Sequence record: OR683401.1
Length of the DNA: 38,458 nt
Direction: 5' to 3' (one strand)
From: Pseudomonas phage Bise
Shown here one piece after another: positions 5,235-26,800 of the stretch (position 1 is the stretch's first letter; every line of letters begins with the position of its first letter). Below the pieces are notes generated by a model. The model did no database searches. It was not told where the DNA came from and was given only the letters and a program-made list of their open reading frames with translations. The translations under genes and the position numbers were made by a program.

Positions 5235-5240
5235 AGCGGC

Positions 5241-6324: not shown

Positions 6325-6563
6325 GGCTTGTCCCCGGCGTTGGCGACGGACGCGGCGATGCTGCCGTACTTGAGCGAGAGGAACTTCGAGGCGGTGACGG
6401 CACCGGCCACGCAGGAGAGGTAGGCCCACCACACCTCGGTTTCGGCCTGACCCACCCAATTCAGCCGCACGAACGAAACGGTGGCGGCGGCGTAGCCGAT
6501 GTTGGCCCAAATCTTCGTGTGCGAGAGGCGGCCGTCGCGGGAGACCAGGTCGATGAGCTTCAT
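6321..6563 (-). CDS. Putative holin
   Basis: 80 aa from MKLIDLVSRD...; two hydrophobic segments; ATGA overlap with the endolysin stop. Confidence 0.4.
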   Translation of the reverse strand: MKLIDLVSRDGRLSHTKIWANIGYAAATVSFVRLNWVGQAETEVWWAYLSCVAGAVTASKFLSLKYGSIAASVANAGDKP

Positions 6564-7003
6564 GCCGAGGCAACCTCCAGCGGGGTCTTGCCTGCGGCGA
6601 GCTGGGCCAGCGACAGGCCGCCCGTGTATTGGAAGTGCGCGTATTCGCGGAACGTCTTCCAGCGGCCAGCCCATTCCAGGCCAGCGGCTTCACCGAGCTG
6701 GCCGATGCGTTCCCACAGCTTGCCGTCTGCGCCGGTGGTGTTCCACACGGCCTTGCCGTCGCGCAGTGGTACCACGTCGAAAGCAACGCGCCAGTTGTGG
6801 AAGCTCTGGCCCGCCTTGGCGTTGGTCACACGCTTGCCGGGCGTGGTGCGGCCTTGCGCATAGAGGGCTGCCTGGCTTTCCAGGTCGCGGTAGGTGGAGG
6901 TGACGATGATGTCGATGCCTTCCCGCTTGCAAGCGTCGAGGAAGGCTTGCGCCCGCGCACGCACGGGCGGCAAAAGATCGTCTAGGGAGCGAGAATTTTT
7001 CAT
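6560..7003 (-). CDS. Endolysin, peptidase M15 (VanY/D-Ala-D-Ala carboxypeptidase-like) family
   Basis: 147 aa; ...IIVTSTYRDLESQAALYAQGRT...SFHNWRVAFDV... resembles M15 zinc peptidase endolysins. Confidence 0.7.
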   Translation of the reverse strand: MKNSRSLDDLLPPVRARAQAFLDACKREGIDIIVTSTYRDLESQAALYAQGRTTPGKRVTNAKAGQSFHNWRVAFDVVPLRDGKAVWNTTGADGKLWERIGQLGEAAGLEWAGRWKTFREYAHFQYTGGLSLAQLAAGKTPLEVASA

Positions 7004-7036
7004 GCCGCCATGATGGCGGCGGCTCCCTGGTGAGGT

Positions 7037-7057
7037 GATTAAAGTGCTTTAGTTTCC
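7037..7057 (-). promoter_or_regulatory. Late-promoter activator site (P_lys equivalent), minus strand: GGAAACTAAAGCACTTTAATC
   Basis: Copy of the 5x conserved dyad motif; centre about 43 bp upstream of the endolysin ATG at 7003. Confidence 0.5.
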
Positions 7058-7414
7058 GTCCGGCAGCAGTGGCATCTGCCGGGTGCTTAGGTCGCGTTGC
7101 CGCGCCCGCTTCACGATGTTTCTCACCTGCATTTCCGTGAGGTCGTACTTGTGCGCGAGCATCTTGTAGTTGTCCCCGTTGAACTCCGACCAGATTTGCT
7201 CATCGCGTTGCGACAGCTCATAGGACAAGCCGCGCGGGATGTACTGTTGAACGCCTCCGATCTCCGTGCGGATGGCCTCGGTGATGGTGAACGCAAGCGA
7301 CGTGGCTTGCGCGATTTCGTGCGTGACCAGCCGGTTGTAGATCACCTGGCCGATCTGTTCGAGCAGTTCCGGGTATCCATCCGGGAAGTGCATCATCGTG
7401 CTCTCTGGCTTCAT
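7049..7414 (-). CDS. Mor/C-family late transcription activator
   Basis: 121 aa; C-terminal ...YKMLAHKYDLTEMQVRNIVKRARQRD... HTH typical of Mu Mor/C; last gene before the lysis cassette, as C is in Mu. Confidence 0.7.
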   Translation of the reverse strand: MKPESTMMHFPDGYPELLEQIGQVIYNRLVTHEIAQATSLAFTITEAIRTEIGGVQQYIPRGLSYELSQRDEQIWSEFNGDNYKMLAHKYDLTEMQVRNIVKRARQRDLSTRQMPLLPDGN

Positions 7415-8061
7415 GGTTTCTCCCTCTTATCGAGTGCTGTTTTCAGTGCTTCCCAAGCAGTTTGCATGGGGTCAAAGGTCTGCCGGGTTTGCGCCAGGCC
7501 GACCGTGGAGCGCAGCCCGGTCAGTTCCTCGTCGCTCAATGTGACGCTGCCGGTCTTGATCGCTTCCGATAAGGTTTGAGCCATTTCCCTCACCTGGCCA
7601 GGCAGGTAACGCATGGCCCATTTCTTCAAAGTCTCGATGAGAGCTTCCGTCTGGTCGCCGTTCGTCCATTGCAGTGCGTCTACCTTGGCGATGCGCTTCA
7701 CATAAGCAGCCAGGGCTTCCTCGGATGGGTTCTTCACCACGCCCAACTGGTGCAGGAACAACCAGAGAGCGCGTACCTTCCGCGCCTCCGGGTATTGCGC
7801 CAGGGGACGGCCCGGCCTGCTTTGAGCAGGAGGCCGGGCCGACTTCACCCGCACCTTGAAACCGCTGCGCTTCATGCGCTCCAGGACGCGCTCCAGCTCC
7901 GGCACGCTCATGGCCGAGGTGGAGTCCTTCTGCACACTGCCCATGAGCAGCGCGCGGTATATCTCATCGTCCAGGCCCAGCTCGCGCTTGCCCACATGAA
8001 TGAGACGTATGAGGCGCTGGCGAGCATCCTGATTAGCGGCGGTGCGGGCGGCGGACTTCAT
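7411..8061 (-). CDS. GemA-like (Mu gp16 / DUF1018) regulatory protein
   Basis: 216 aa; 4-nt overlaps with both neighbours. Confidence 0.6.
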   Translation of the reverse strand: MKSAARTAANQDARQRLIRLIHVGKRELGLDDEIYRALLMGSVQKDSTSAMSVPELERVLERMKRSGFKVRVKSARPPAQSRPGRPLAQYPEARKVRALWLFLHQLGVVKNPSEEALAAYVKRIAKVDALQWTNGDQTEALIETLKKWAMRYLPGQVREMAQTLSEAIKTGSVTLSDEELTGLRSTVGLAQTRQTFDPMQTAWEALKTALDKREKP

Positions 8062-8756
8062 AGGGCCGCTCCCAGCGCCAGGCGCTCATCACCGCCCACG
8101 CCGCGATTGAGCTGGGCATCCCGACCAGCCCGATGCCCTGCTTGCATGTCGCCGTAGTCGCGCTCGGAGAGGTTGCGGCCCGCGTTGCGGTTGTGCCCCT
8201 GGAAGCTGGTCAGCGTGTGCTTGTGCTCCAGGTAGGCCGTGACGCGGGCCTGCGCAGCCGCGCTACCGGCGAAGTTCTCCACCAGCTCGGTTGCCGTCAT
8301 CACCCAGCCCTCGCAGAACAGGTCGGCGCGGCGCGTGCGAGTCGTGGTGCAGCGTTTCAGGGCCGTCTTGACATAGTGCGTCCGCGCCCGCTTCGCCTGG
8401 CGAAACAACACCTCGAAGGCGTAGCGGGCGATTTCGCCGGACGGTGCCGCGCCCACGAACACCCAGCGTCCGACTGGACGACTGCACGCCAGGAACACCG
8501 AGCAGTCGAACGCGGCGGCCACACGGGTGGCCAGGCCGCATTCCCAGAGGGCTGGCTTCTGCGCAGCACCGGCGCGGGTGCTTTCTTCCTGGATGTCGGC
8601 GTGCTCAACGTCCAGGTCGCTGATGCCGTGCATCTGCATCAACTTCTGCGCCTGACGCAGCGCGTTGGCCGCCTCATGCTCGTTGCTGGACTTCGCCAGG
8701 GCCAGGCACTTCTTGACCTTGGCGATGATCTTGTCGCGGTCGGCTTGTTCCATCAC
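8058..8756 (-). CDS. DUF2786-like conserved phage protein
   Basis: 232 aa; N-terminal MMEQADRDKIIAKVKKCLALAKSSNEHEAANALRQAQKLM... pattern. Confidence 0.45.
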   Translation of the reverse strand: MMEQADRDKIIAKVKKCLALAKSSNEHEAANALRQAQKLMQMHGISDLDVEHADIQEESTRAGAAQKPALWECGLATRVAAAFDCSVFLACSRPVGRWVFVGAAPSGEIARYAFEVLFRQAKRARTHYVKTALKRCTTTRTRRADLFCEGWVMTATELVENFAGSAAAQARVTAYLEHKHTLTSFQGHNRNAGRNLSERDYGDMQAGHRAGRDAQLNRGVGGDERLALGAAL

Positions 8757-9262
8757 GCCACCTCGACCTCGAACGGTTCGATGACGAAGTCCTCGATGCC
8801 GGTGACGATGTTGATGCCCGCGATGCCGCAGACGGCCTTGGGGTCGGCAAGCATGGCTTCCTTGTTCGGCTCCTCCTTGCTGCGGATGAAGCGGCCCAGG
8901 CCCAGCGAGCGCAAGGTCTCCAGCACCTTATCGACGCTGCGGATGCTGACGCTGGGCGGGCGCTGCCGCCACTTGACGAGGCCGGTGATGAGGTTGGCCT
9001 CCTTGCCACCGCCTGCCAGCAACTCGGCGCGGTGCGCTTCGCACCAGGTCTGGATGCCACCGGCCAGCGTGTCGATGCGGGTCTTGAGCGCCTCGATTTC
9101 GTCCTTGCGCCCGGCGGTGATGGCCGCGATCTGGTCGTTGATCTCGGTCTCCACCCGCGTCAGCTCGCGCTGTGCATCGCCCAGGGCGCGGATGGCTTCA
9201 ATCGTCAGTTCCTTGCTCTGGCACACCCACTGCGCGGCCTTTGCCTTTTTCTTCGTTGCCAT
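8753..9262 (-). CDS. gam: Host-nuclease inhibitor Gam (Mu Gam family, Ku-like)
   Basis: 169 aa; collinear similarity to Mu Gam (…LQRE..R.ETE.ND.IA.IT…GVQ.WCEA.R.EL..GGK..ANL.TG.V.WR.RPPSVSIR…LGL.RFIR.K.E.NKEA.L..PKAV.G.AGI…GIEDF.I.PFE). Confidence 0.85.
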   Translation of the reverse strand: MATKKKAKAAQWVCQSKELTIEAIRALGDAQRELTRVETEINDQIAAITAGRKDEIEALKTRIDTLAGGIQTWCEAHRAELLAGGGKEANLITGLVKWRQRPPSVSIRSVDKVLETLRSLGLGRFIRSKEEPNKEAMLADPKAVCGIAGINIVTGIEDFVIEPFEVEVA

Positions 9263-9638
9263 GTCGTGGCTCCTTCATTGATAGCGTTTTCTTGAGGTCT
9301 TTCATCAGCTCGCGGATGCGCGCCAGGTTCTGTTCGCGCACTTCCGGCGAGATAGGGGGCGGTGGCAGTTGGCGCGGTGGCGCGCGGGCACCGAGGTTGT
9401 CCAGGTAGAGCTTCGGCGGCGGCCAGCGGTCGCAGATGCGGAACAGCACCAGGAAGGCCCGCTCCATGCGCTCGCGGTCGAGGTGTTCCTCCCACGCGCA
9501 GCCGTTGTTCCAGATCGCCTCCAGCCATACCTCGGCGGTGCCGACGATGGCGTCCTCCGGCGGCGTTCCAGCCAGGCGAAGGGCCAGCAGCTTCTGCAAG
9601 CCGGTGGCGATGACGACGCGGAACCAGTCAGGCACCAT
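9198..9638 (-). CDS. Hypothetical early protein (3' end overlaps the gam start by 65 nt; boundaries uncertain)
   Basis: 146 aa ORF, GC3-rich. Confidence 0.35.
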   Translation of the reverse strand: MVPDWFRVVIATGLQKLLALRLAGTPPEDAIVGTAEVWLEAIWNNGCAWEEHLDRERMERAFLVLFRICDRWPPPKLYLDNLGARAPPRQLPPPPISPEVREQNLARIRELMKDLKKTLSMKEPRHGNEEKGKGRAVGVPEQGTDD

Positions 9639-10113
9639 GCTTGAAACTCTCCAGCGCGGCGATGCCAGACAAGGTCTTGGACGAAGCCTTGGTGACGCCC
9701 AGGCGCGGCGCGCTATCGACCACCAGGTTGCTCACCGTGGGGCGGTAGTTGGCGATGACCTCGTAGAGCCAGCCGTGGCCCTTGAGGGGCGTCTTGAGCC
9801 GCCCGGCGTCGCGGGCGGCCAGCCCTTGTTCGATGGCCCACACCCAGGCTTCCTGGGGCGCTTCATAGACCTGGCCGTTGCGCGTGATGCGCCCGGCCTG
9901 GATGTCCGGCAGCACCTCGGCCAGCAGCTTGCCCACGCGCTCCATCGTCAGCTCGCGCGCCTCGGGGCGGAACAGCGCGAGGTAGCGCACCAGGGCAGCG
10001 CCGACCGTGCCGGAGAGCTTGAAGGCGGCGGCGAGGGCTTCGCGTGCGCCTTCGTGGGCGACCAGCGCGTCGAGCGAGAGCGTTGCGCCGCAGGACGGGC
10101 AGCGTGTCCTCAT
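9628..10113 (-). CDS. Hypothetical early protein with an N-terminal CPSC zinc-ribbon-like motif
   Basis: 161 aa ORF; 4-nt overlap with the upstream gene. Confidence 0.4.
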   Translation of the reverse strand: MRTRCPSCGATLSLDALVAHEGAREALAAAFKLSGTVGAALVRYLALFRPEARELTMERVGKLLAEVLPDIQAGRITRNGQVYEAPQEAWVWAIEQGLAARDAGRLKTPLKGHGWLYEVIANYRPTVSNLVVDSAPRLGVTKASSKTLSGIAALESFKHGA

Positions 10114-10460
10114 TGCACCTGCTCCTTCGCGCGCTGGACTTCCTTCCAGATCACGCGGATGCCCTGGTAGTGGATGGAGCAGAGGCGGCTCCCATCGGCC
10201 TGGGCTTCGGTGGTGCGGCCGCGCCCCAGCTCCAGCAGGGGCTGGAGCTGCTTCGTGGAGCCGGGCATGACCGTGATGGTCGGGCGGTCGGTCATGCCGG
10301 GGTGGAGCGACTCCTGCACCACGCTGTAGCCCATCGCGCGCAGCTCGCGCGCGACACGGTTGACCGCCTCCAGGCGGGAAACGAACTCCTCGGTGAACAC
10401 TCTGCTCATGACATGCTCCGTATGGGCGATGGGGCGGACGAGATGCAGGGGGGCGGCCAT
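10110..10460 (-). CDS. Hypothetical early protein
   Basis: ATG at 10458-10460 lies 2 nt after the B stop (translational coupling); the alternative start MSRVF would be at 10409. Confidence 0.35.
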   Translation of the reverse strand: MAAPLHLVRPIAHTEHVMSRVFTEEFVSRLEAVNRVARELRAMGYSVVQESLHPGMTDRPTITVMPGSTKQLQPLLELGRGRTTEAQADGSRLCSIHYQGIRVIWKEVQRAKEQVQ

Positions 10461-10461
10461 G

Positions 10462-11688
10462 TCACGCCTCCTTGACGATGTCGGCGTCAACCACCGGAGC
10501 GCCCAGGCTGGCGGCCACGTTCATGGCGGCGGTGAGCGCGTTGGCGACGGCCAGGGGATAGGCCAGGCTGACGTAGGTGGTGCCCAACTGGCCGGACTTG
10601 GTGTTGGCGGCCTTCTTGGAGAAGGTCAGGCGCTCGCGCAGCGCGGCGATGCCGTCGGGCGTGATGACCTTGGAGACGTCCAGACCGACGCGGGCCAGCT
10701 TGAACTTCAGGTAGTCGGCCAGGTAGCCGTCGAGCGGCGGCAGTTCGACGATGTCGCAACGCTGCGCGACTTCGCGGATGTCGGGGTCGTTCACCGACAG
10801 GCGCTTGCGCAGCTCGGGCTGCGCGATCATCACCACCGACAGCATGGGCGAGAGGCCGTCCTTGATCTCGGAAAACCGCTTGAGATGCTTCAGCGTTGCC
10901 TTGGGCAAGCAGTGCGCTTCTTCGATCAGCAGCAGGTGGCGCTGGCCCGCGCGGTGCCCGGCGGTGAGCAGCTTCTTGACCTGGCGGGCGCGGGCCTCCA
11001 GGTCGCGCGCGGGGGAGACGCCAGGCGCGACGGTGTCGATGATGGCCTGCACGATGGCTGCGCTCTTGAGCGTCTTGCCCTTGGCGTCGTTCTCCTCCAT
11101 GTAGAGCACCGAGGGTTCAATCACGACCAGGTCGCGGCCCTCGCGCAGCAGGCGCTCCTTGAAGTCATCGACCAGGGTGGACTTGCCGCTGCCGCTCTCG
11201 CCGACGATGGCGAGCATCCCGCCGTGCTTGGCGGTCTGCCAGAGCGTCTCGCGCACGAAGCGGATGTCCTGGTTGATGAACACGTCGCTGGCCTGCGTGA
11301 CGTCGTTCTTGAACGGGTCGGCGGTGAACTGGAAGTGCGCGCGGGCAGCAGGGGTCAGGGTTTGCTTTTGCAGGAGCATGTCGGTTTCCTTCTCGGCAGT
11401 TGATGAGGTCGCGCTGGACGTGGGCGCGGTGGTGGGGCGCTCTGCGGCGTCCTTCGGTTGTGCGGGTTGCATGGCGCGGTCGATTTGCGCGGTGTCGGCA
11501 CCGGCGCGGCGCAGCCGGTCGGTGATCTCGGCGCGCAGCTCGGCGGTGTTCTTCTTCGGCCATTTGCCGTGGTTGACCAGGTCGGCCAGGGTGCCCGGTG
11601 AAATGCCCAGGTCTCGCGCCAGGTGGGCCTGGCGGATGCCGAGCTTGTCGAGCAGCCGTTTGAGGGGCGTGGTGCGTGGAGAGGCCAT
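10462..11688 (-). CDS. MuB-like transposition ATPase (AAA+), with an N-terminal HTH
   Basis: 408 aa; Walker A GESGSGKST; immediately downstream of the transposase. Confidence 0.8.
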   Translation of the reverse strand: MASPRTTPLKRLLDKLGIRQAHLARDLGISPGTLADLVNHGKWPKKNTAELRAEITDRLRRAGADTAQIDRAMQPAQPKDAAERPTTAPTSSATSSTAEKETDMLLQKQTLTPAARAHFQFTADPFKNDVTQASDVFINQDIRFVRETLWQTAKHGGMLAIVGESGSGKSTLVDDFKERLLREGRDLVVIEPSVLYMEENDAKGKTLKSAAIVQAIIDTVAPGVSPARDLEARARQVKKLLTAGHRAGQRHLLLIEEAHCLPKATLKHLKRFSEIKDGLSPMLSVVMIAQPELRKRLSVNDPDIREVAQRCDIVELPPLDGYLADYLKFKLARVGLDVSKVITPDGIAALRERLTFSKKAANTKSGQLGTTYVSLAYPLAVANALTAAMNVAASLGAPVVDADIVKEA

Positions 11689-13517
11689 TACCGGAACCTC
11701 CGCAGCTCAACCACGCTGCCGCCGTGCGTGCCGGTAGCGGCCTGCGCGACGTTCCACTGGTCGGCCCATGCCTGCGGCACGTTGCCGTCCGGGAAGGCGG
11801 CCTTGACCTGGCTGTAGAGGTCGGCCGGGGCCGCGTCGCCGAGGCGTTCCTTGATGGCGCGCACGGCCTCGGGCACCGTGAGCATGATCTGCACCGATGC
11901 GGCCTTGCTCTGGAGCTGCTGCACCTGGGGCGTCTGCACTTCCCCGGCGTTGGGCACCAGGCGGCGAGGCAGGTCGGCCTGGCCGAGGTGGCTGTGCGCG
12001 ACCAAGCCCTTGCCATCGTTGAGGTGGCCGAAGGGGCGGGCTTGCTCGGCGCGCTTCTTCTCGGCCTCGTCCACCGTGGTGCCGTCGCCCCAGGCTGCGG
12101 CGGCCAGCGTGTTCGCCGCGCGCTCGCTGGCGGTCTGCGGGGCACGGGCGTATTCCTCGCCCGCGACCGGCGCGGACAGCGGCCGCCCGTATTCGTCGAA
12201 CCCGCGTTCCGGCTCCACCTGCATCAGCAGCGGCTCCGCGCCCATGCGGTCGATCTCGATGCGTAGCGCGCCCTGCTGCATCAGCAGCGGCGTGATGCGC
12301 ACCTTCTGGCCGTTGCCCAGGAACTCGGCCCAGGGGGTCAGGTCGTAGCTGGCCTTTCGCCCCAGCTCGGGGTGCGCGAAGGTGATGTGCAGGTTGCGCA
12401 CCACGCGGGTCAGCTCCTGGCCCGCCATGAACCACTGGCACACCTCGCGCGCGGGCATCTGCACCAGCGCGCCGGGGTGGCGCATGATGAGCTGCCAGAG
12501 GTCGTCGCGCACCATCGGCTGACCGCTGGCGCGCACCAGGCGGCAATCGACCTTCTCGATGGCGTTGGCGTTGAAGTCGCGCACCCAGCGCGCCGCCGAG
12601 GCGTTGAGCTGCTCGACGCTCTCCACTGGCTCAAAGCGCAGGCGGCTCTCGAAGTGGGTCTCCACCAGGTTGTTTCCCTGCTCGACGCCGCCCTTGCCCC
12701 AGGAATGGCCGGTGGCGTGCGTTTCGTGGTCAACGCCCAGGGCGTCGAGCAGGTTCTTGATGGCGAAGCTGGTGTTGGCGCTGCCTTTGTCCCACAGCAG
12801 CATCTTGGGCACGCCATGCGACATGCGGCCGGGCTGCTGGCCCCAGGTGTAGAGCAGGAACTCGAACAGGCTGTGCTGGTTCTCGCCAGCGGCCTCGAAG
12901 TAGCGCACGTCGATGGTGCCGCTGGCGTGGTCGTAGCGGACGTAGCGCCACACCTTGAGCCGCACCTTGTCCATGCTGGCGGGCTTGTTCTTGTAGAACT
13001 CCTCGTCGCGCATGATCGCCTGCCCTTTCGGCGTGTAATAGATGAGGCAGAGCGAGGGGTCGATCTGGTGCAGGTGGTTGGGGTGCAGGCTGCGCAGGGT
13101 GATGTGGTTGCGGGCGGCGGCCTGGGCCTTGGCGTCCATGCGGGCGGCGCGCAGCAGCGCGTTGACGCGGCCCTCGGAGACGGTCACGTCGATGCCGTTG
13201 GTGTGCGCGATGTTCATGGCCACCGCCGTAGGCAGCGTGGCCTTGCCGTTGCCACGGATGCCTTCGCGCTTGGCCGCCGCGATGAAGTGCAGCGTTTCCT
13301 TGGGCAGCGCCGTGGTGCCCGCGTCGGCGCGCTTCTTGCGGCCGGTGCGGTAGCCCGCGTAGTTGCGCAGCCAGGTATAGACGGTGGAGGGGTTCTTGCC
13401 GATGAGGCTGGCAAAGCGATGCACCAGCTCGGTCGCCGAACCATGCGGGGCCGCAGCGATGCGGTCGCGCAGGGCGAACAGCTCTTGCAGCAGGTCTGGA
13501 GCGAGTTGATGGGCCAT
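11688..13517 (-). CDS. MuA-like DDE transposase
   Basis: Likely start MAHQLAPD at 13515-13517 (ORF 11688..13817 has an implausible Pro/Ser/Arg-rich extension); about 610 aa Mu-transposase-like core. Confidence 0.8.
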   Translation of the reverse strand: MAHQLAPDLLQELFALRDRIAAAPHGSATELVHRFASLIGKNPSTVYTWLRNYAGYRTGRKKRADAGTTALPKETLHFIAAAKREGIRGNGKATLPTAVAMNIAHTNGIDVTVSEGRVNALLRAARMDAKAQAAARNHITLRSLHPNHLHQIDPSLCLIYYTPKGQAIMRDEEFYKNKPASMDKVRLKVWRYVRYDHASGTIDVRYFEAAGENQHSLFEFLLYTWGQQPGRMSHGVPKMLLWDKGSANTSFAIKNLLDALGVDHETHATGHSWGKGGVEQGNNLVETHFESRLRFEPVESVEQLNASAARWVRDFNANAIEKVDCRLVRASGQPMVRDDLWQLIMRHPGALVQMPAREVCQWFMAGQELTRVVRNLHITFAHPELGRKASYDLTPWAEFLGNGQKVRITPLLMQQGALRIEIDRMGAEPLLMQVEPERGFDEYGRPLSAPVAGEEYARAPQTASERAANTLAAAAWGDGTTVDEAEKKRAEQARPFGHLNDGKGLVAHSHLGQADLPRRLVPNAGEVQTPQVQQLQSKAASVQIMLTVPEAVRAIKERLGDAAPADLYSQVKAAFPDGNVPQAWADQWNVAQAATGTHGGSVVELRRFR

Positions 13518-13533
13518 GTCGAGTTCCTGCGCG

Positions 13534-14427
13534 TCAGGCCGCTTCTGGCGTGTATGCGCCCAGCGACTTGTCGAAGGTGGTGCGTTCCTTCTCCAGCCCG
13601 GCCTCGGCCCGCGAGAGCGCCTGCTCGTACACCTCGGCGATGTGGGCCAGCGCCGCGTCGTACTTCGGGCGTTGCTCATCCGGGACTTCCTGCGCGACCT
13701 CGAACAGCGTGATGCGGCAGGTTTCCAGCTCGCTGATGGCCTGGGCGAGCTTGCGACCGGCGGCGGCAACCTGCTCGGAGACTGGCTCCAACGCATCGGG
13801 CCAGTCCGTGTCGGCAACCACCTTCTTCTTGAGCTGCACCTGGAGGCTGGTGAGCTTCTTCTGCGTCTTGTCCAGCACGGCGTCCTTGGCTTCCAGGTCG
13901 CCTTGCAGGCTGCGGATGGCGTTCCGCAGTTCGCCCGCGCTCATGCGGTCGATGTCGTCGATGTCCTTCAGGTTCTCCAGCACGTCATCGTCGTGCGTGA
14001 CCAGCTCCAGGAAGGCGCTGGCGCTTTTCACCTGTGTGCTCAAAAGTGCCAAATTGGCAGATTTCGCCGTCTTGGCAGCAGCCTGCATGAAGCGCGCGGC
14101 CGACCTGTAGCTGAAGCCGAGGAACTCCACACGCTTCTCGAACTCGCCGTGCGGCGTCAGCTCGCGCAGCACCAGGAGCCGCTTGCCAAGCTCCAGCAGC
14201 GACTCGACAGTGCGGCGCTGGTAGAAGCGGATTTCGTCCTCCAGCGCGCCGATGGTCAACGTGCCTTCGTAGCCGATCTCGGTGGCGATGGCTTGCGCCG
14301 CAGCTTCCTGCTTGGTCTGCATGACCGCGAGCTGGTTGGCTGCGGCGACAGCGGTGGGCAAGCCCGGCAGGTCGGCGTCAGCGACGACCTCGGCGACAAC
14401 TGCGGTCTTGGTGGCGGTTCGGGCCAT
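13534..14427 (-). CDS. DUF3102-like coiled-coil early protein
   Basis: ATG at 14425-14427 preceded by AAGGAG; 297 aa, Ala/Glu/Leu-rich. Confidence 0.45.
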   Translation of the reverse strand: MARTATKTAVVAEVVADADLPGLPTAVAAANQLAVMQTKQEAAAQAIATEIGYEGTLTIGALEDEIRFYQRRTVESLLELGKRLLVLRELTPHGEFEKRVEFLGFSYRSAARFMQAAAKTAKSANLALLSTQVKSASAFLELVTHDDDVLENLKDIDDIDRMSAGELRNAIRSLQGDLEAKDAVLDKTQKKLTSLQVQLKKKVVADTDWPDALEPVSEQVAAAGRKLAQAISELETCRITLFEVAQEVPDEQRPKYDAALAHIAEVYEQALSRAEAGLEKERTTFDKSLGAYTPEAA

Positions 14428-14437
14428 GTTCTTCTCC

Positions 14438-14743
14438 TTAGTGGCTGGTGAGGCGTGACTGGATGTTCTCGATGCGCTCGCGGGCGGCGTCGAGGCTGCG
14501 AAGCACGGCCACGGCGTGGCGTGCGAACTGCACCGAGGGGCGGATGCGTCCGGTCTCCGGGATGCGTTCGGCAAAGCCCTTTTCTTCGAGCGTGGCGACG
14601 TAGCGGGTGATGGCGCTGGGGTCGAGGCCGGTGGCCTTCGACAGATCGGTGGGCGTGAGGCCGTGGGCGAAGTGGCCCAGCAGCGCGGCCAGAACGTCGA
14701 GCACCTTGGCTGCTGTCTGGCTGGTCTTGGTTGGCGTACTCAC
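14438..14743 (-). CDS. IclR-type winged-helix DNA-binding protein (stand-alone HTH)
   Basis: 101 aa; VLDVLAALLGHFAHGLTPTDLSKATGLDPSAITRYVATLEEKGFAERIPETGRIRP matches the IclR N-terminal HTH pattern. Confidence 0.45.
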   Translation of the reverse strand: MSTPTKTSQTAAKVLDVLAALLGHFAHGLTPTDLSKATGLDPSAITRYVATLEEKGFAERIPETGRIRPSVQFARHAVAVLRSLDAARERIENIQSRLTSH

Positions 14744-14966: not shown

Positions 14967-15036
14967 CGGCGGCGTCCTTGGTTACGAACTTGTTATGTAG
15001 ATTATATCTACTTTTATAGATTTGCAAGGAGGGCTT
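14967..15036. promoter_or_regulatory. Divergent c/ner switch region. AT-rich, with the perfect 13-bp palindrome TAGATTATATCTA (14998-15010) and a half-site repeat TATAGATTT (15014-15022)
   Basis: Only AT-rich stretch in the region; lies between the divergent starts of ner (14966, minus) and the repressor (15037, plus). Confidence 0.55.
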
Positions 15037-15468
15037 GTGGCCGACTTTGAAAAAATCCTGCTGCGCCTGAAAGAGCAGCTTGGTGTCTCGACAGACAAGG
15101 AAGCAGCAGAGCTGCTAGGGCTTTCCGACAAGGCGCTCAATGCCAGGAAGCGGCGCGGGGTGTTCCCCGAGGAGAAGCTGTGGGTGCTCTCGGCGAATCG
15201 CCCGGATGTAGATGCAATCTACATTTTGCGAGGCGTGAAGAAGGGCGAGGAGCACGCCACGCCAGCGGCGCAGTTGCTGCGCATGAAGGTGCTGGCCAGC
15301 CTGGTAGCCGACGAGCTGCACAAGCGCAAGGCCAGCCTGTCCGAGGTCAGCTTCCATGAGCTGCTTGACGAGCTGTGGCCGGAGTGGAGTGCTGATGCTT
15401 CGCCGGAACCAGCGGCGCTACGCGGGCGCATCGGGCACGCATTGAAGGTGCGAGGCATCAAGGGATGA
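15037..15468 (+). CDS. CI-type phage repressor (Phage_CI_repr HTH domain); probable GTG start
   Basis: Perfect SD CAAGGAGGG at 15025-15033 then GTG at 15037; ...DFEKILLRLKEQLGVSTDKEAAELLGLSDKALNARKRRGVFPEEKL... matches the CI-repressor HTH family. Confidence 0.7.
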   Translation: MADFEKILLRLKEQLGVSTDKEAAELLGLSDKALNARKRRGVFPEEKLWVLSANRPDVDAIYILRGVKKGEEHATPAAQLLRMKVLASLVADELHKRKASLSEVSFHELLDELWPEWSADASPEPAALRGRIGHALKVRGIKG

Positions 15469-20579: not shown

Positions 20580-22031
20580 ATGGCTGCAAATTTTCTGCAC
20601 GGCGTCGAGACCATCGAGATCGACAGCGGCCCGCGTGCCGTGTCCCTGGTGAAGACCGCCGTGGTTGGCATCATCGGCACGGCGGCGGCTGGCGCGGTGA
20701 ACACGCCCATCCTGGTCACCAGCGAGCGCGACTTCGCGCAGTTCGGCGAGGACATCCCCAACAGCACCATCCGCAAGGCGCTCGACCGCATCTACAAGCA
20801 GAAGGGCACGGTGGCCATCGTCATCAACGTGCTCGACCCGGCCACGCACAAAACCACGCTCTCCACGCCGGAGACCGTGACCATTGACCTGGACGGCAAG
20901 TTCGCGCTGGGCCATGCCGCCGTGGTGGGTGCCCTCACGCTGACCAACTCGGCGGGCACCACCACCTACGTCAAGGACACCGACTATTCTTTCGACCCGG
21001 CGACCGGCACCGGCGAGCGCATCAGCACCGGCAGCATCCCGGCGGGCACCGTGGCCAGCCCCACCACGCTGAAGGCGTCGTACTCCTACGCGAACCCGAC
21101 GCTGGTGCAGCCCTCGGACGTCATCGGCACCGTCAACGGGGCGGGCCAGCGCACGGGCATGAAGGCGTTCCGCGACAGCTACCAGCTTTTCGGCTACTAC
21201 CCGAAGATCATCATCGCCCCGGTGTTCAGCACGCTCAACTCGGTGTCCTCCGAGCTGGGTGCGCTGATGGAGAGCATCCGCGCCTTCGGCTTCATCAGCG
21301 CGCCCATCGGCACCACGGTGCAGCAGGCGATCACGGGGCGCGGGCCGTCCGGTAGCATCAACTTCAACACCAGCTCGCGCCGCATCGGCTTGTGCTTCCC
21401 GCACGTCAAGGACTACGACACGGCGACGGACACCGAGGTGCTGGCCGACCTGGCGACCTACGCCGCAGGCGCGCTGGCCCGCAAAGACCAGGAAAACGGC
21501 TACTGGTGGTCGCCCTCGAACACCGAGCTGCTCGGCGTGACCGGCCTGGAAACGCCCATCTACGCGATGATCAACGACGCCAACAGCGAGGCCAACCTGC
21601 TGAACGAGGCGGGCATCATCACGGTGTTCAACAGCTACGGCACGGGCATCCGCCTGTGGGGCAACCGCAGCGCGGCTTTCCCGAGCGAGACGCACCCCAA
21701 GAACTTCATCAACGTGCTGCGCACGGCGGACGTCATCGCCGAAAGCCTGGAGTACTACACGCTCCAGTACGTGGATCGCCCGCTGGACAACGCCCTCATC
21801 GACGCCATCGTGGAGAGCGGCAACGCCTTCATGCGCAAGCTCAAGGCGGACGGCGCGATCATCGACGGCAAGGTGTGGTTCGACCCGGCCGACAACGAGA
21901 CCACCGAGCTGTCGGCGGGCCACGCCACGTTCACCTACGACTTCATGCCGCCGCCTGCCACCGAGCGCGTGACCTACAAGTCCATCGTCAACACGGACTA
22001 CCTCAACCAGTTGGGCACGAAGTCCTCCTGA
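20580..22031 (+). CDS. Tail sheath protein (Mu L-like)
   Basis: 483 aa; RBS AAGGAGA; sheath-family sequence. Confidence 0.85.
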   Translation: MAANFLHGVETIEIDSGPRAVSLVKTAVVGIIGTAAAGAVNTPILVTSERDFAQFGEDIPNSTIRKALDRIYKQKGTVAIVINVLDPATHKTTLSTPETVTIDLDGKFALGHAAVVGALTLTNSAGTTTYVKDTDYSFDPATGTGERISTGSIPAGTVASPTTLKASYSYANPTLVQPSDVIGTVNGAGQRTGMKAFRDSYQLFGYYPKIIIAPVFSTLNSVSSELGALMESIRAFGFISAPIGTTVQQAITGRGPSGSINFNTSSRRIGLCFPHVKDYDTATDTEVLADLATYAAGALARKDQENGYWWSPSNTELLGVTGLETPIYAMINDANSEANLLNEAGIITVFNSYGTGIRLWGNRSAAFPSETHPKNFINVLRTADVIAESLEYYTLQYVDRPLDNALIDAIVESGNAFMRKLKADGAIIDGKVWFDPADNETTELSAGHATFTYDFMPPPATERVTYKSIVNTDYLNQLGTKSS

Positions 22032-22061: not shown

Positions 22062-22583
22062 GTGGCTGGCATTCAAGTCAATACGCTCAACAACGCGAAC
22101 ATCTACATCGACGGCAACAGCCTGCTGGGCCAGGCCGAGGAGTTCAAGCTCCCGGTCGTGAAGTTCAAGATGGCCGAGCACAAGGCCGTGGGTATGGTCG
22201 GCGCGATCAAGCTGCCCAGCGGCTTCGATGCGCTGGAAGGCGAGATCAAGTGGAACAGTTTCTACGCCAACGTGTGGCCCAAGCTGCTCGACCCGTTCAC
22301 CCCGGTGCAGCTCCAGGCGCGCGGCAGCCTGGAGACCTACACCAGCCAGGGCCGCACGCAGCAGGTGCCCTACGTGGTGTTCCTCACCGCGTCGTTCTAC
22401 GAAGTGCCGACCGGCGACTTCAAGCAGAACGACAAGGCCGAGTTCAGCAGCAAGTTCTACGCGACCTACATCAAGCAGCAGGTCAACGGCTCGGACGTGC
22501 TGGAAGTCGATGCGATGGCCAACATCTACAAGGTCAGCGGCGTTGACAAGCTCGACCTGTACCGCACCAACATCGGAGGCTGA
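22062..22583 (+). CDS. Tail tube protein (Mu M-like)
   Basis: 173 aa directly after the sheath; RBS AAGGAG. Confidence 0.75.
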   Translation: MAGIQVNTLNNANIYIDGNSLLGQAEEFKLPVVKFKMAEHKAVGMVGAIKLPSGFDALEGEIKWNSFYANVWPKLLDPFTPVQLQARGSLETYTSQGRTQQVPYVVFLTASFYEVPTGDFKQNDKAEFSSKFYATYIKQQVNGSDVLEVDAMANIYKVSGVDKLDLYRTNIGG

Positions 22584-22588
22584 CCATC

Positions 22589-22885
22589 ATGACCGACACC
22601 ACGAAAAACACCGCCGCACCCGTCAATCCCGCCAGCGCGGAGCTGGCGATTCCGCTGGCCACGCCCAATGGCGAGGTCAAGACCATCAGCTTCCGGCGCG
22701 GCAAGGCCAAGGACATGGTGGCCGCGCAGCGCATCGAGTCCGACCCGGCGCGCCGCGAGCTGGTGCTCATGGCGATGCTGTCCGAGCAGAAACTCACCGT
22801 CGAGGACATCGAGGAGCTGGACTTGGCCGATCTGGCCACTGTCCAGGCGGCATTTCAAAGTCTGTGGCTGCCCCGCGCTTCCTGA
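22589..22885 (+). CDS. Tail assembly chaperone (upstream frame)
   Basis: 98 aa between tube and tape measure. Confidence 0.5.
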   Translation: MTDTTKNTAAPVNPASAELAIPLATPNGEVKTISFRRGKAKDMVAAQRIESDPARRELVLMAMLSEQKLTVEDIEELDLADLATVQAAFQSLWLPRAS

Positions 22886-23036
22886 CGAGACCTTGTGGGA
22901 GGCGTGCGGGCTGCTCGCCAAGTGGTTCCACTTCCAGCCCACGGAAATCTACGAGCTGGAGTGGTGGGATTTTGAGAAGTGGGTGGGCCTGGCGGTGAAG
23001 CAGGCCGAGGCCGCCGCAGCGGCTTACCGGGCGTAG
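22668..23036 (+). CDS. Frameshift extension of the tail assembly chaperone (+1/-2 frame relative to 22589..22885)
   Basis: Overlapping ORF in a different frame with a protein-like C-terminus ...TEIYELEWWDFEKWVGLAVKQAEAAAAAYRA; conserved G/GT-type arrangement. Confidence 0.35.
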   Translation: MARSRPSASGAARPRTWWPRSASSPTRRAASWCSWRCCPSRNSPSRTSRSWTWPIWPLSRRHFKVCGCPALPDETLWEACGLLAKWFHFQPTEIYELEWWDFEKWVGLAVKQAEAAAAAYRA

Positions 23037-23314
23037 CCGAGGCGGCGGGCCAGCCAGGCGAAGGGCGTGGGAAGCATCCAGGCGACCCAGCGCAGGGGCA
23101 GGCAGATCACCAGGCCCAGGGCGTAGCCAATGATGCCGCCGCCGATGGCTCCAGGGATGGAGGTGAGAAGAAGGCCCAGCGCCGTGCCCAAGAACGCGAG
23201 CAGGAAGCCAACCACCCCGGAGCATTGCGCCCAGGGCAGCTTCATGGCGTCAGCGGTGTCGCGTTCCGCCTGATCGCCTGCTTCCTGCCATGTTTTTTGG
23301 AGCCAGTTTTTCAT
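23024..23314 (-). CDS. Antisense moron: two-TM glycine-zipper membrane protein (96 aa)
   Basis: High GC3 coding bias; hydrophobic helices with IPGAIGGGIIGYALGL; lower-GC upstream region 23316-23440 with a sigma70-like TTGGCC-16-TATACT on the minus strand. Confidence 0.5.
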   Translation of the reverse strand: MKNWLQKTWQEAGDQAERDTADAMKLPWAQCSGVVGFLLAFLGTALGLLLTSIPGAIGGGIIGYALGLVICLPLRWVAWMLPTPFAWLARRLGYAR

Positions 23315-23440
23315 GTCGAAAACGCTAACGCTGGGTATCGTCTTTTCGTCGATGGGGGCTGGTGCTGTTGCCACCACTATCGGGACTGTGGTAGGCCACC
23401 TCGGCAGTATAGAAAAAAGGTTGTTCAGGCCAAATCCCGG

Positions 23441-26400
23441 ATGAAGGAACTCGGCCTGGAGACCGTGGATGCCTTCGCCGTCCAGAAGAAGGAACTGCAA
23501 AAGGCGAAGGAAGAACTCCAGTCGCACCAGGAGGCCACCACCTCGCTGGGCCGCGCTGTTTCCCAGGCCCGCGTCCAGCAGGAGGCGGCGACCGAATCGC
23601 TGCAAGCCTATCGCACCGAGCTGGCTGGGCAGACCGGCCGCGCCACGGATGAGCAGCGCACCAAGCTCAAGGAACTGCGCGACCAGGTCGGCCTGGCCGA
23701 CAAGAACCTCAAGGGACTGACGCGCGAGTTCAAGGACGCCCGCGACAAGGGCGAAGGCATGAACGAGAGCGTGATGCGCCAAACCGAGCGCCTGCAACGG
23801 CTGCGCTCGGCCCTGGAGCAGAACGGTGTCTCCACGCGCAACCTGGCCGAGCACCGCCGCCGCATCACCCAGGCCATGCGCGACGAGCAGGCCACGGTGG
23901 ACAGGCTGACCACTCGCTACGAGAAGCTGAAGGCCGCGCAGAACGCGCAGCAGCAGGCTCGCGCCGACCTCAACTCGCGCTGGGGCGATGCGATGGCCGC
24001 CTACGGCACCGCGCGGGCGCTGGGTGCGCCCGTTGGGGCGTTCATCCGCCAGGACGATGCGCTCAACTCGCTCCAGGTCGCCATGATGGACAAGAACGGC
24101 CAGGTGGGCGGCACCTACGACGCGCTCAAGCGTCAGGCCATCGAGCTGGGCAACCTGCTGCCGGGCACCACGGCGGACTTCGTTGGCACCGCCCGCGCGC
24201 TCATGGAGCAAGGCGTGGCGGTCGAGTCGGTGCTGGGCGGCGGCTTGAAGGCGGCCTCGTACCTGTCGGTGGTGCTGCGTATGCCCACCGAGGAAGCCGG
24301 TGAGATGGCGGCCAAGCTGCGCGAAGCCTACAAGCTCTCCGACGACGAGCTGACGAAGATGGCCGACTCCATGCAGCGGGCCAAGTTCGCCTTCGGCATG
24401 AAGCCATCCGACCTCATGGCCGCCAGCGCCTACCAGGCACCCATGCTCAACCAGCTCGGTATCTCCGGCATCGACAACACCAACAAGATGCTGGCCATCC
24501 AGGGCATGGCCGCGCAGGTTGGCCTGGAGGGTTCCTCGTTCGGTACCAACTTCTCGATGATGCTCTCGCGGCTGGCCAAGGGGCCGCAGATGATCGAGGA
24601 CGCCAAGAAGGGCATGAAGGGCCACGCCAAGGGGCTGATGGAGGACGCGGGCATCACCTTCGACTTCTTCGACAAGCAGGGCAACTTCGCGGGCCTCGAC
24701 CACATGGTCACCGAGCTGGAGAAGCTCAAGACCATCAAGGACAAGCTGGGCGACAAGGCGGCGATGGAAGTGGCCGAGGCCATGTTCGGTGCGGAGGCGG
24801 GCCGCCCGGCCATGATTCTGGCCGAGCAAGGCATGGCCGGGTTCCGTGCCGCGCAGGAGCGCATGGCGCAGCAGGCCAGCCTGCAACAGCGCATCGAACG
24901 CACCACGGCCAGCAGCCGCAACACCATCGAAGCCTTGGGCGGCTCCCTGGAGAACCTGGGCGCGGCGCTGGCCGGGCCGGTGGTGCAGGCGCTGCATCCG
25001 CTCATCAACACGCTGAACACCGCCACCGGCTGGCTGACGGAGTTTGCCGATAGCAATCCGCGCGCCACCAAGGCGCTGGGCTTCCTGGTGCTGGGCCTGG
25101 GCGCGGCGATCACCACCTTCTTCGCGCTGGGCGTGGCCATGTCCTTCGGCCGCGTGCTCGCTTCGGGCTTCCAGGTCTTTTCGCTCATGACGCGCATCGG
25201 CGGCGGCGCGGCCTGGCTGGGCGGCGTGCTGCGCGGGCCGCTGCTGGGCGCGCTGGGCGTGGCCAGGGTGGCGGTCATCGCGCTGGGCCGGGCCATGCTG
25301 ATGAACCCCATCGGCCTCATCATCACCGGCATCGCGGCAGGCGCGTACCTGGTGTATCGCTACTGGACGCCGATCAAGGGCTTCTTCCTGGGCCTGTGGG
25401 GCGGCATCAAGTCGGGCTTCGTGAGCGCCTGGAACGGCGTCACGTCGATCTTCACCGGCATCTGGAGCCAGATCACCAGCGCCTTCTCCGGTGGCATCGC
25501 GGGCGTGGGCAAGCTCATCGTGAACTGGTCGCCGATGGGGCTTTTCTACAAAGCATTTTCTGGCGTGTTGTCCTGGTTCGGCGTTGACCTGCCGAAGAAC
25601 TTCACGGACTTCGGCGCGAACATCATCAGCGGGCTGACCAGCGGCATCAAATCGGCCATTGGCGGTGCGGTCACGGCCATCGGCGACTTCGCCTCGGGCC
25701 TGAAGTCGAAGTTCACCAACCTGCTGGGCATCAAGTCGCCCTCCAGGGTGTTCATGGGTTTCGGCGGCAACATCGGCGAGGGCGCGGCGCTGGGCATTCT
25801 GCAATCCGTGCCTGGAGTCCAGGGCGCGGCAGGCAGGCTGGCCGGGGTGGCGTTGGCTGGTGCGGTCGCCGCGAGCAACACCGCCGTCGCGGGGGTGAAC
25901 AGCTCCATCCAGACGCGCCAGCCGATTGAGCCGCCGCGCCTGGAAGCTCCGGCCGCACAGGCGCTGCGCCCGGTCGCGCCTGCCGCCATGCCGCGCGTCG
26001 AGCTGCCGCGCATGGGTGTCCCGCGGCTGGACGTGCCCGAGCAGCCGCGCCAGGCTGCTGCGCCCGCACCGATGCCGCAGTCCGCTGCACCCACGCCTGC
26101 CCGCGTTGAACTGCTGCGCCTGGTTGCTCCGGCAATGGCCCCGCTGTCGCTGCCCACGGTGTCGGTAACGGTGCCGCGCATTGAGCTGCCGTCGATGCCA
26201 CGCGCAGATCTGCCTGGCCAGCCGGTGCCGCGCCAGGTTGCCTCGCCAGCGGCTGCGCAGCCTGTCGCGCCCGTGGTGGTGCAGCAGGCCAGCCAGCCCG
26301 CTCCGGCGCGTATCGTGCTGCCCAGCCAGACAGCACCGGCCGCAGTGCCGCCGCCGGTGGTTGCCTTGCCGCCGATGCCGCGTATCGAGATGCCGCGCCT

Positions 26401-26800
26401 GGCGCTGCCGGGGCCGAACCTGGCCGCGTCGCCGGTGACCAGGCTGGTCGCGTCGGTGTTGATGCCGCAGGCCAGCGCGCCCGGCCCGGTGCGTGTCGAT
26501 CTGCCGAGCCTGACGTCGCCCATGCAAGCGGCGCAGCCTGCCGTGCCCGCGTCCATGCAGCGGGTTGGCGAGGTGAGCCAGGCTGTGTCCCGCCGCGAGA
26601 GCGCGGCCGGGGCGGCGACTGCGGCCGCACCTGGCCAGGGGATGACGATTCACTTCTCGCCCAACATCACCGTGGGCGGCGGCGACAGCAACGGCAGTGA
26701 CGTGCGCGGCCAGGTGCAGGAGAGCCTGAAGCTCTCCATGCGCGAGCTGGAGCAGATGCTGCGGCGCTTGCAGGCCGAGCAACAACGGAGGGCTTTCTAA
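23441..26800 (+). CDS. Tail tape measure protein
   Basis: About 1119 aa from MKELGLETVD; coiled-coil N-terminus, Gly-rich TM-like middle, Pro-rich degenerate repeats near the C-terminus. The upstream part of ORF 22979.. is not protein-like. Confidence 0.75.
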   Translation: MKELGLETVDAFAVQKKELQKAKEELQSHQEATTSLGRAVSQARVQQEAATESLQAYRTELAGQTGRATDEQRTKLKELRDQVGLADKNLKGLTREFKDARDKGEGMNESVMRQTERLQRLRSALEQNGVSTRNLAEHRRRITQAMRDEQATVDRLTTRYEKLKAAQNAQQQARADLNSRWGDAMAAYGTARALGAPVGAFIRQDDALNSLQVAMMDKNGQVGGTYDALKRQAIELGNLLPGTTADFVGTARALMEQGVAVESVLGGGLKAASYLSVVLRMPTEEAGEMAAKLREAYKLSDDELTKMADSMQRAKFAFGMKPSDLMAASAYQAPMLNQLGISGIDNTNKMLAIQGMAAQVGLEGSSFGTNFSMMLSRLAKGPQMIEDAKKGMKGHAKGLMEDAGITFDFFDKQGNFAGLDHMVTELEKLKTIKDKLGDKAAMEVAEAMFGAEAGRPAMILAEQGMAGFRAAQERMAQQASLQQRIERTTASSRNTIEALGGSLENLGAALAGPVVQALHPLINTLNTATGWLTEFADSNPRATKALGFLVLGLGAAITTFFALGVAMSFGRVLASGFQVFSLMTRIGGGAAWLGGVLRGPLLGALGVARVAVIALGRAMLMNPIGLIITGIAAGAYLVYRYWTPIKGFFLGLWGGIKSGFVSAWNGVTSIFTGIWSQITSAFSGGIAGVGKLIVNWSPMGLFYKAFSGVLSWFGVDLPKNFTDFGANIISGLTSGIKSAIGGAVTAIGDFASGLKSKFTNLLGIKSPSRVFMGFGGNIGEGAALGILQSVPGVQGAAGRLAGVALAGAVAASNTAVAGVNSSIQTRQPIEPPRLEAPAAQALRPVAPAAMPRVELPRMGVPRLDVPEQPRQAAAPAPMPQSAAPTPARVELLRLVAPAMAPLSLPTVSVTVPRIELPSMPRADLPGQPVPRQVASPAAAQPVAPVVVQQASQPAPARIVLPSQTAPAAVPPPVVALPPMPRIEMPRLALPGPNLAASPVTRLVASVLMPQASAPGPVRVDLPSLTSPMQAAQPAVPASMQRVGEVSQAVSRRESAAGAATAAAPGQGMTIHFSPNITVGGGDSNGSDVRGQVQESLKLSMRELEQMLRRLQAEQQRRAF

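Follow-up and report, generated by a model that had tools for sequence, protein, structure and literature searches.

What is a small gene doing on the opposite strand in the middle of a phage tail operon? The question is raised by Pseudomonas phage Bise (sequence record OR683401.1), whose 38,458 nucleotides (nt), taken here as a whole and called the window, represent a Mu-like transposable prophage of P. aeruginosa with a P2-type contractile tail (BcepMu-like, combining a Mu head with a P2 tail). Between the extension of its tail assembly chaperone (TAC), E′, and its tape measure protein (TMP) lies a minus-strand open reading frame (ORF) of 96 codons, here called ORF96 (MKNWLQKTW...RRLGYAR, then stop). 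A sequence-only reading of this DNA had described it as an antisense moron encoding a membrane protein with two transmembrane (TM) helices. The ORF is confirmed where it had been placed, and we show below that it is a protein-coding gene locked into both of its neighbors, with a conserved promoter-like site written in TMP codons. As the overall best explanation, held with somewhat less than even confidence, we propose that ORF96 encodes a moron-like, prophage-expressed inner-membrane protein that would exclude superinfecting phages. Coordinates of the features discussed are collected in Table 1.

Is ORF96 a gene at all? GC-rich DNA yields long spurious antisense ORFs, the frame of ORF96 continues without a stop for 1364 codons along the antisense strand of the TMP gene, and the ORF is without a strong Shine-Dalgarno sequence, all of which would suit a chance open frame. 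Against this, no plus-strand gene spans 23037-23312, and ORF96 is the sole frame across that interval that is both open and coding-type in its GC pattern. Its GC content by codon position is ~0.65-0.66/0.52/0.81, and the neighboring late genes have third-position values (GC3) of 0.86 to 0.95, which bears out the strong GC3 bias that had been ascribed to the ORF. The ratio of nonsynonymous to synonymous substitution rates (dN/dS, or omega; Nei-Gojobori method) in the ORF96 frame is 0.12 to 0.27 in unsaturated pairs, while the five remaining frames either give ratios above 1 or contain stops; both the coding GC pattern and omega values below 0.3 are thus confined to the ORF96 frame. Substitutions in this frame cluster at the third codon position (as in counts of 6/7/17 and 13/9/28 over the three positions), and homologues at 30 to 93% identity keep their motifs and start position. 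The chance-frame explanation is already effectively refuted, and ORF96 is, with near certainty, a real protein-coding gene under purifying selection. We also considered a plus-strand extension of TMP from GTG 22979, the possibility that could have undone the antisense gene. It is rejected over 23037-23312, where the plus frame has a GC pattern of 0.81/0.52/0.66 and an omega of 1.5 to 2.1; the DNA at 23313-23440 is genuine TMP coding sequence.

A P. aeruginosa hypothetical protein, WP_073652172.1, matches ORF96 with 100% identity; it is present on at least 15 contigs, and we found no mention of it in the literature. Further homologues have 93, 79, 63, 45, and ~33% identity (down to ~30%), and they are rare: we recovered 9 in 5.8e9 proteins, a profile search gave only 17 clusters among 1.84 billion representatives, and a tblastn search of 50,697 phage records found no counterpart of ORF96. 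Locus searches used alignment A2, with the more divergent alignment A1 set aside. The sequences fit a new, unnamed family of their own (family A), with an N-terminal helix bearing W-(R/Q)-E..ERDxADA..LPW, two TM helices, and a nearly invariant C-terminal P(T/A)PFAWLARRLGYA. Family N-termini begin at one position, which supports the ATG at 23314 as the start of ORF96. All homologues with usable context lie antisense between E′ and TMP, a synteny shared by L001, L002, L003, L006, L007, L008, L022, L019, L025, and the P0010 contig.

How can a gene be accommodated at a junction with no room for it? The TMP of relatives, like that of every other P. aeruginosa copy, begins at the counterpart of position 23313, with the sequence MSKTLTLG(I/L)VFSSMGAGAVAT...GSIEKK..., and gene callers applied to other contigs likewise put the TMP start at a CATG. 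The start codons of ORF96 and TMP therefore overlap within this palindrome, and the Shine-Dalgarno sequence of TMP (GGAG, 23299-23302) falls within ORF96 codons 5 and 6. Since the 3′ end overlaps that of E′ and the predicted promoter and 5′ untranslated region (UTR) lie in TMP codons, ORF96 has no intergenic DNA of its own. We asked whether its C-terminal motif might be kept merely through the overlap with E′ or as a DNA element and rejected this, given that the overlap is 13 nt; the motif is conserved at the protein level, since synonymous sites within it vary.

TMP itself is split in the window by a 1-nt deletion in a run of adenines, A6 here and A7 in the 11 copies with which it was compared (P. 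aeruginosa contigs L090-L098, L006/L023, and L007/L010); other copies encode a continuous TMP of 1162 amino acids (aa). A programmed frameshift at A AAA AAG/AGG is not the simplest reading, since the 11 compared copies all combine A7 with an unbroken TMP, and we rejected it. The A6 run is either a sequencing error or an inactivating TMP mutation of the prophage. One Logan contig (L095, ~1191-1240) ends in an Illumina adapter, AGATCGGAAGAGCACACGTCTGA, right after the A7 run, an assembly artifact in public data.

If ORF96 is to be expressed independently of the opposing tail genes, it should have a promoter. The element TTGGCC-16-TATACT, reported earlier on the minus strand, is present and is the sole promoter-like site found by consensus scan in 22500-24000, where shuffled sequences lead one to expect 0.1. 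Its 16-nt spacer is peculiar to the window copy and results from the deletion in the A7 run; every other copy has 17 nt. All family A loci, including those encoding ~33%-identical members, carry TTGnnn-17-TATACT 88 to 91 nt upstream of the small ORF, with a variant -10 box (TAAACT) in L022. On the TMP strand the -10 box reads as the codons AGT-ATA (Ser-Ile), used in 8 of 9 family A loci. AGT makes up 2.2% of Ser codons and ATA 1.7% of Ile codons in the late genes of the window, for a joint expectation of ~0.04%. A natural control is provided by L021, a relative without the small gene, which has the common codons GCG-ATC-GGC at the -10 position and no antisense promoter-like site. The promoter-like element is conserved and under nucleotide-level constraint. 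Among 18 dereplicated genes from the chaperone-TMP junctions surveyed below, 12 have a promoter-like site (at least 9 of 12 positions, at most 130 nt upstream), against a background of 1.2% per window; these loci are phylogenetically nonindependent, yet they span at least five protein families. Judged from these patterns, ORF96 very probably has its own promoter.

The predicted leader is antisense to TMP codons 1 to 29 and folds no better than shuffled sequences (z = -1.0), and no Rfam family was found in the window. No intrinsic-terminator-like site was detected in 22500-24000. The sequence-only reading had also placed ORF96 behind the only lower-GC stretch of the tail region. The low GC content holds (0.548 for 23315-23440 versus 0.66 overall), but the stretch is the N-terminal coding sequence of TMP rather than intergenic DNA, and it is not the only one, with other low-GC 126-nt windows starting at 35017 (0.49) and 21983 (0.51).

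We asked what kind of protein this gene would produce. Hydropathy places hydrophobic segments at residues ~28-50 and 53-80, and an AlphaFold2 (AF2) model with a predicted local distance difference test score (pLDDT) of 83 has helices at 2-24, 28-50, 53-80, and 82-91, so that hydropathy and model agree on the two hydrophobic helices that had been called. The second of these, TM2, holds a glycine zipper, G55xxxG59xxxG63xxxG67, within GAIGGGIIGYALG, and G59, G60, and G67 are invariant in alignment A2. The N-terminal helix (2-24) is polar and, as had been noted, amphipathic, with a hydrophobic moment (muH) of 0.35 to 0.47. A very short turn (TSIPG) joins the TM hairpin, which is followed by a basic amphipathic tail, PTPFAWLARRLGYA. 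The basic C terminus implies a C-in orientation, and by the positive-inside rule the protein would be N-in/C-in. ORF96 may thus be pictured as a helical hairpin in the inner membrane, presenting to the cytoplasm both the conserved N-terminal helix and the basic tail, with the glycine zipper in its second membrane span.

Searches for glycine-zipper, holin-like, and superinfection exclusion (Sie) proteins, the homologies that had been thought worth seeking, gave no significant match. In Pfam, the sole family to come up at E ≤ 1 was DUF6332 (E = 0.17, below the cutoff), with no glycine-zipper, holin, or YebO-type match; PHROGs gave no match and no lysis family, PADLOC gave no defense-model match for ORF96 or for four positional analogues, and NCBIfam, a PDB sequence search, and Foldseek against PDB returned nothing significant. 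The Pfam glycine-zipper profiles (e.g., Gly-zipper_Omp/YMGG and Rick_17kDa_Anti) do not recognize ORF96, while the GxxxG repeat itself is present. Two transmembrane domains (TMDs) in an N-in/C-in arrangement are the topology of class II holins and pinholins. Like class II holins and glycine-zipper small membrane proteins, ORF96 combines two TMDs with a helix of GxxxG repeats and, by prediction, a cytoplasmic C terminus that is basic. Unlike class II holins, it lies outside the lysis cassette and matches no holin family.

Is the position of ORF96 peculiar to family A? We surveyed 80 viral loci recruited with the tube protein, many of which have a minus-strand ORF of 80 to 100 aa with 2 or 3 TM segments and a basic C terminus, ending 350 to 760 nt after the tube gene. 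The occupants form four sets: family A, family B (...LALAAWWLERKSAHSPA), family D (...IRWRRSRA), and family E (...LVSRFNRRRSHV) plus L011. A small antisense ORF also fills the slot in Burkholderia phage BcepMu and in Pseudomonas phage Komp_PAO1_1, with a Komp-like relative in L039. All of these genes stand back-to-back with the TMP start, either overlapping it in a CATG or 20 to 45 nt away, and the slot families have omega values of 0.14 to 0.45 in tested pairs, with one near-saturated pair at 0.71. When ORF96 was compared by BLASTP and hhalign with the occupants from BcepMu and Komp_PAO1_1 and with families B, D, and E, nothing was significant (best probability below 40%), and we therefore treat these slot proteins as positional analogues, not homologues. 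Among themselves, too, the slot families show no detectable homology. In family D (L027, L048, and L043), TCGCCA-17-TATACT ends just 8 to 9 nt before the ATG, a distance which suggests that these family D genes may be expressed as leaderless mRNAs.

The occupant in BcepMu (NC_005882, L004) is unannotated. It is an 80-aa, multi-TM ORF at 5045-5287 on the minus strand with a GC pattern of 0.58/0.48/0.93, whereas the annotated gp43 on the plus strand (4958-5344, "alternative gp42 C-terminus by slippage") has a noncoding pattern of 0.93/0.48/0.58. The reference annotation is therefore probably on the wrong strand; the equivalent ORF in phage phiE255 is annotated as gp17, a "putative membrane protein." phiE255 gp17 and its BcepMu counterpart resemble ORF96 in lying antisense between E′ and TMP, back-to-back with the TMP start, and in encoding a multi-TM protein with a basic C terminus. 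They differ from it in having no detectable homology (BLASTP E ≥ 0.39; hhalign probability, 2.5%), in that the two starts are 30 nt apart rather than overlapping, and in having no promoter-like site above threshold; both proteins are uncharacterized.

The small-protein family follows the TMP type, not the tube type. The window and L012/L011 share 87 to 88% identity in the tube and only 14 to 16% in TMP and have different small-protein families, while L012 and L024, at 64% in the tube and 66% in TMP, have the same family. Small genes can also evolve faster than the adjacent TMP: L041 and L073 are 99% identical in the tube and 98% in TMP, compared with 64% in the small protein. Both dS and dN are raised in this pair, and the divergence suggests allelic replacement of the small gene.

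Relatives differ in whether they carry the gene at all. It is absent from L021 and L020; in L021 the E′ stop adjoins the TMP ATG, and the TMP is homologous, of the L019/L025/L022 type. No small antisense gene was found in the slot of lower-GC enterobacterial-type relatives or of true P2-like phages. The E+E′ of the P2-like phage KS14 adjoins or overlaps T (PMC3091744). Papers on the BceTMilo tailocin, a P2-like Burkholderia cepacia complex (BCC) phage, and VarioGold describe no comparable gene. The converse case, a small gene without its tail, is found in L100 (JGI Ga0466725_061032, a 120-kb contig, ~2310-3060). Here, a ~690-nt prophage remnant bounded by REP-like palindromes, GTTGGGCT...AGCCCAAC, sits between host pnp and ahpC/dsbD and keeps only the 3′ part of E, E′, an intact family A ORF (P0014), and the first 52 TMP codons, which bear TTCAGT-17-TATACT. 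This remnant argues that the small-gene unit works without tail genes, and it weakens morphogenetic and purely regulatory readings of ORF96. A second, more decayed remnant was observed beside a glutamate-synthase-like gene in an Accumulibacter metagenome-assembled genome (L009, JAITIQ010000207.1, 2827-3248), where only the last 17 codons of the ORF96-family gene (..LIPTPFAWLARHLGYAR, then stop) and the overlapping E′ end (..KQAYRA, then stop) are retained.

Does ORF96 then deserve the name moron, in the sense of Juhala and Hendrix? Part of that earlier proposal stands. The gene has a promoter by computational evidence (a conserved site in rare codons, absent in L021), it lies between genes that are adjacent in relatives (L021, L020, and KS14), and it is retained in L100. 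Other hallmarks are missing: there is no terminator, the 3′ end running instead into E′; the composition is phage-like, with a GC content of 0.66 equal to that of the window and GC3 near that of the neighbors; and the gene is interlocked with both neighbors in a conserved slot.

The closest precedent is HK97 gene 15, the archetypal and first moron, which lies between the tail chaperone and TMP genes (PMC3594210). Its product, gp15, a small protein of the inner membrane, is made from the prophage under its own promoter and blocks DNA entry in a manner dependent on the tail/TMP region of the incoming phage (PMC3594210; PMC10883804). ORF96 shares the chaperone-TMP junction and its product is, by prediction, likewise a small inner-membrane protein, whereas we found no sequence similarity to gp15 or YebO. 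HK97 is an Escherichia coli siphovirus, while ORF96 belongs to a contractile-tailed, Mu-like Pseudomonas phage. HK97 gp15 is encoded on the tail-gene strand, with a flanking promoter and terminator in its own DNA. By contrast, ORF96 is antisense, overlaps both neighbors, lacks a terminator, and has its promoter-like site within TMP codons. It may accordingly be described as a gp15-like junction moron in which the architecture and the slot are new, being antisense, promoter-embedded, and drawn from an uncharacterized protein family.

Two further systems block DNA injection at the inner membrane. T4 Imm, modeled with four helices, binds the TMP of a contractile-tailed phage directly (2026 preprint, bioRxiv 10.64898/2026.03.06.709160), and P22 SieA is an inner-membrane injection blocker whose escape mutants map to ejection proteins and whose sequence types are less than 30% identical with the same specificity (PMC10883804). 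Both are small or medium inner-membrane proteins that halt genome translocation, as proposed for ORF96, and the divergent types of SieA echo the sequence-diverse occupants of the ORF96 slot. Neither matches ORF96 in sequence or fold, neither gene is interlocked with that of its target, and Imm is expressed by a lytic phage, unlike the proposed prophage-expressed ORF96.

Given the precedents of HK97 gene 15, T4 Imm, and P22 SieA, superinfection exclusion at the TMP step ranks first among the readings that we considered, and a block of TMP-dependent DNA entry by ORF96 is a tentative choice of mechanism, a little short of even odds. The ORF96 promoter would need no late activator, and the gene would therefore be transcribed in the lysogen while the late operon is silent. 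The protein would then stop superinfecting genomes from entering at an inner-membrane, TMP-dependent step, in a manner resembling HK97 gp15, T4 Imm, and P22 SieA. In the lytic cycle, late transcripts running toward the gene would shut it off.

Several observations weigh against exclusion. In neither sequence nor fold does ORF96 resemble Sie, Imm, gp15/YebO, holin, or defense families, and no strong Shine-Dalgarno sequence was found upstream of its ATG. The predicted periplasmic loop is ~2 to 5 residues, so short that contact with an incoming TMP could occur only within the membrane or at the cytoplasmic face. Cosegregation of the small gene with TMP is unsurprising, since it is expected trivially from their physical overlap. 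Tight integration and phage-like GC content argue against a recently acquired accessory gene and are compatible with a part in the cycle of the phage itself.

Such a role might be that of an immunity-like guard against the phage's own hydrophobic TMP or of a membrane factor for tail assembly or injection, and it would suit a gene interlocked with E′ and TMP, phage-like in composition, and conserved in position in the type phages BcepMu and phiE255. We nevertheless consider it very unlikely, as late transcription would oppose the antisense gene exactly when TMP is made, close relatives do without the gene, and it persists in L100 without tail genes. The same remnant, with an intact ORF and no TMP left to regulate, counts against the idea that the locus is a cis-antisense transcription-interference device that lowers TMP and baseplate expression relative to sheath and tube, with the protein secondary. 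In favor of such a device, the promoter and the predicted 85-nt leader run antisense across the region where TMP initiates, ORF96 codons contain the TMP Shine-Dalgarno sequence, the position is conserved where the protein sequence is not, and the slot seems to lie exactly where the required protein stoichiometry falls. Set against these points, the slot families, all of them TM proteins, are under protein-level purifying selection (omega of 0.14 to 0.45), and relatives without the gene (L021, L020, and P2-like phages) assemble tails, which leaves an antisense device similarly improbable.

The other alternatives accept a lysogen-expressed membrane protein and give it a different task. ORF96 could be a pore-forming or pinholin-like toxin, either an abortive-infection (Abi) effector or a lysis-timing factor, in which the zipper of TM2 oligomerizes into a depolarizing channel when triggered. 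Two TMDs in an N-in/C-in arrangement, the basic C terminus, and the GxxxGxxxGxxxG zipper are all compatible with this, and the best structural matches are α-pore-forming toxins, but these matches are weak (E ≥ 1). A gene under a sigma-70 promoter should be expressed in healthy lysogens, a situation incompatible with an unregulated pore; the slot contains no partner or sensor gene; no holin, PADLOC, or Abi model matches; and with the lysis cassette and late activator located elsewhere in the window (the former at 5552-7003), ORF96 is not needed as a holin. We therefore regard a pore as unlikely. We place about equally little weight on a lysogenic-conversion factor unrelated to exclusion, one that benefits the host by tuning its envelope, its transport, or its stress functions. 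Roles of this kind are common among small prophage membrane proteins (PMC3594210), and the autonomous promoter and the ORF kept beside host genes in the decayed L100 remnant would fit. Conversion of this kind leaves unexplained why unrelated TM proteins always fill the TAC-TMP junction in BcepMu-like phages and why they track the TMP type.

A bolder form of the exclusion proposal, which we put forward as doubtful, would address the whole slot. In BcepMu-like contractile phages, the TAC-TMP junction may serve as a conserved, dedicated "immunity slot" in which each TMP type travels with its own antisense, prophage-expressed neutralizing membrane protein in a lock-and-key manner. The small protein would specifically neutralize the membrane-insertion or channel step of its TMP, comparable to colicin/immunity pairs, and with the promoter written in the codons of the target gene, target and blocker would be inseparable by recombination. 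The unrelated slot families would then have arisen through an arms race or through repeated replacement.

If exclusion is correct, the HK97 gp15 paradigm would extend to contractile-tailed, Mu-like phages of Pseudomonas, Burkholderia, and other Betaproteobacteria, with natural TMP/blocker pairs for dissecting passage of TMP across the inner membrane and with relevance to phage therapy and prophage-mediated resistance in P. aeruginosa. Regardless of function, the locus holds a lesson for annotation: rare codons within an essential structural gene spell out a promoter-like site, a single CATG provides the starts of two divergent genes, and BcepMu gp43 has apparently been called on the wrong strand. 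ORF96-type genes are easily missed or miscalled in GC-rich phage genomes.

Table 1. Positions of ORF96, its overlaps and predicted control elements, and associated genes in the window
Feature	Position	Strand	Remarks
ORF96 coding sequence, predicted two-TM inner-membrane protein	23024-23314	-	ATG 23314-23312; TAA 23026-23024
CATG palindrome; ORF96 ATG (-) and TMP ATG (+, 23313) share 2 nt	23312-23315	both	Conserved in families A and B
Tail-to-tail overlap of 13 nt, ORF96 3′ end (..YAR, stop) with E′ 3′ end (..YRA, stop)	23024-23036	both	7 of 10 family A loci
Sigma-70-type promoter-like site TTGGCC-16-TATACT	23433-23406	-	-35, 23433-23428; -10, 23411-23406
Predicted 5′ UTR, ~85 nt	23315-23399	-	Estimated from -10 position; antisense to TMP codons 1-29
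A6 homopolymer	23413-23418	+	A7 in all 11 other copies examined
True TMP N terminus, 43 codons, severed by frameshift	23313-23444	+	Continuous TMP in relatives and other copies
Rest of TMP (PhageMin_Tail, PF10145)	23441-26800	+	-1 frame relative to 23313
Sheath	20580-22031	+	
Tube	22062-22583	+	
Tail assembly chaperone gpE (Phage_TAC_7)	22589-22885	+	PF10109, E = 1.2e-11
E′ extension of chaperone	22871-23036	+	phrog_8286; +1 frame relative to gpE
Putative slip site CCC-C for E′	22871-22874	+	Inferred
Lysis block (endolysin/membrane protein/lipoprotein)	5552-7003	-	Other arm of window

The wider layout of the window places these features in two arms. Minus-strand genes encode Mu F, portal, terminase, gp27, the endolysin block, a Mor/C-like late activator, Gam, a B-like ATPase, and an A-like 709-aa protein. 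The plus-strand genes, from 15788, run through protease, capsid, gp36/gp37, sheath, tube, gpE, E′, and TMP to the baseplate genes. This gene order is unlike that of Mu and BcepMu: a leftward block (620-14743, minus strand) carries the early genes, lysis, gp27, terminase, portal, and F, and a rightward block (15788-38303, plus strand) carries protease, capsid, and tail genes, with a central regulatory region that includes a Ner-like gene (14438-14743) and a 148-aa ORF of unknown function (15022-15468). An independent P. aeruginosa contig (FRLO01000082.1, 38,544 nt) has ORF96 equally far from one end and fits the same layout, and the contig ends may be phage ends.

Next to ORF96, the chaperone extension differs in frame from that of P2. 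The P2 chaperone extension uses the -1 frame, while E′ is assigned to the +1 frame relative to gpE because the two stops in the window are 151 nt apart, with a likely slip from gpE to E′ at a CCC-C/G proline codon. The same +1 relation is seen in L002 and in BcepMu gp41/gp42, where the stops are 130 nt apart. Finally, the tube-chaperone junction is another insertion hot spot: L030 has a 420-aa minus-strand ORF there, and L039 has a 183-aa plus-strand TM protein in addition to its Komp-like antisense small ORF before TMP.

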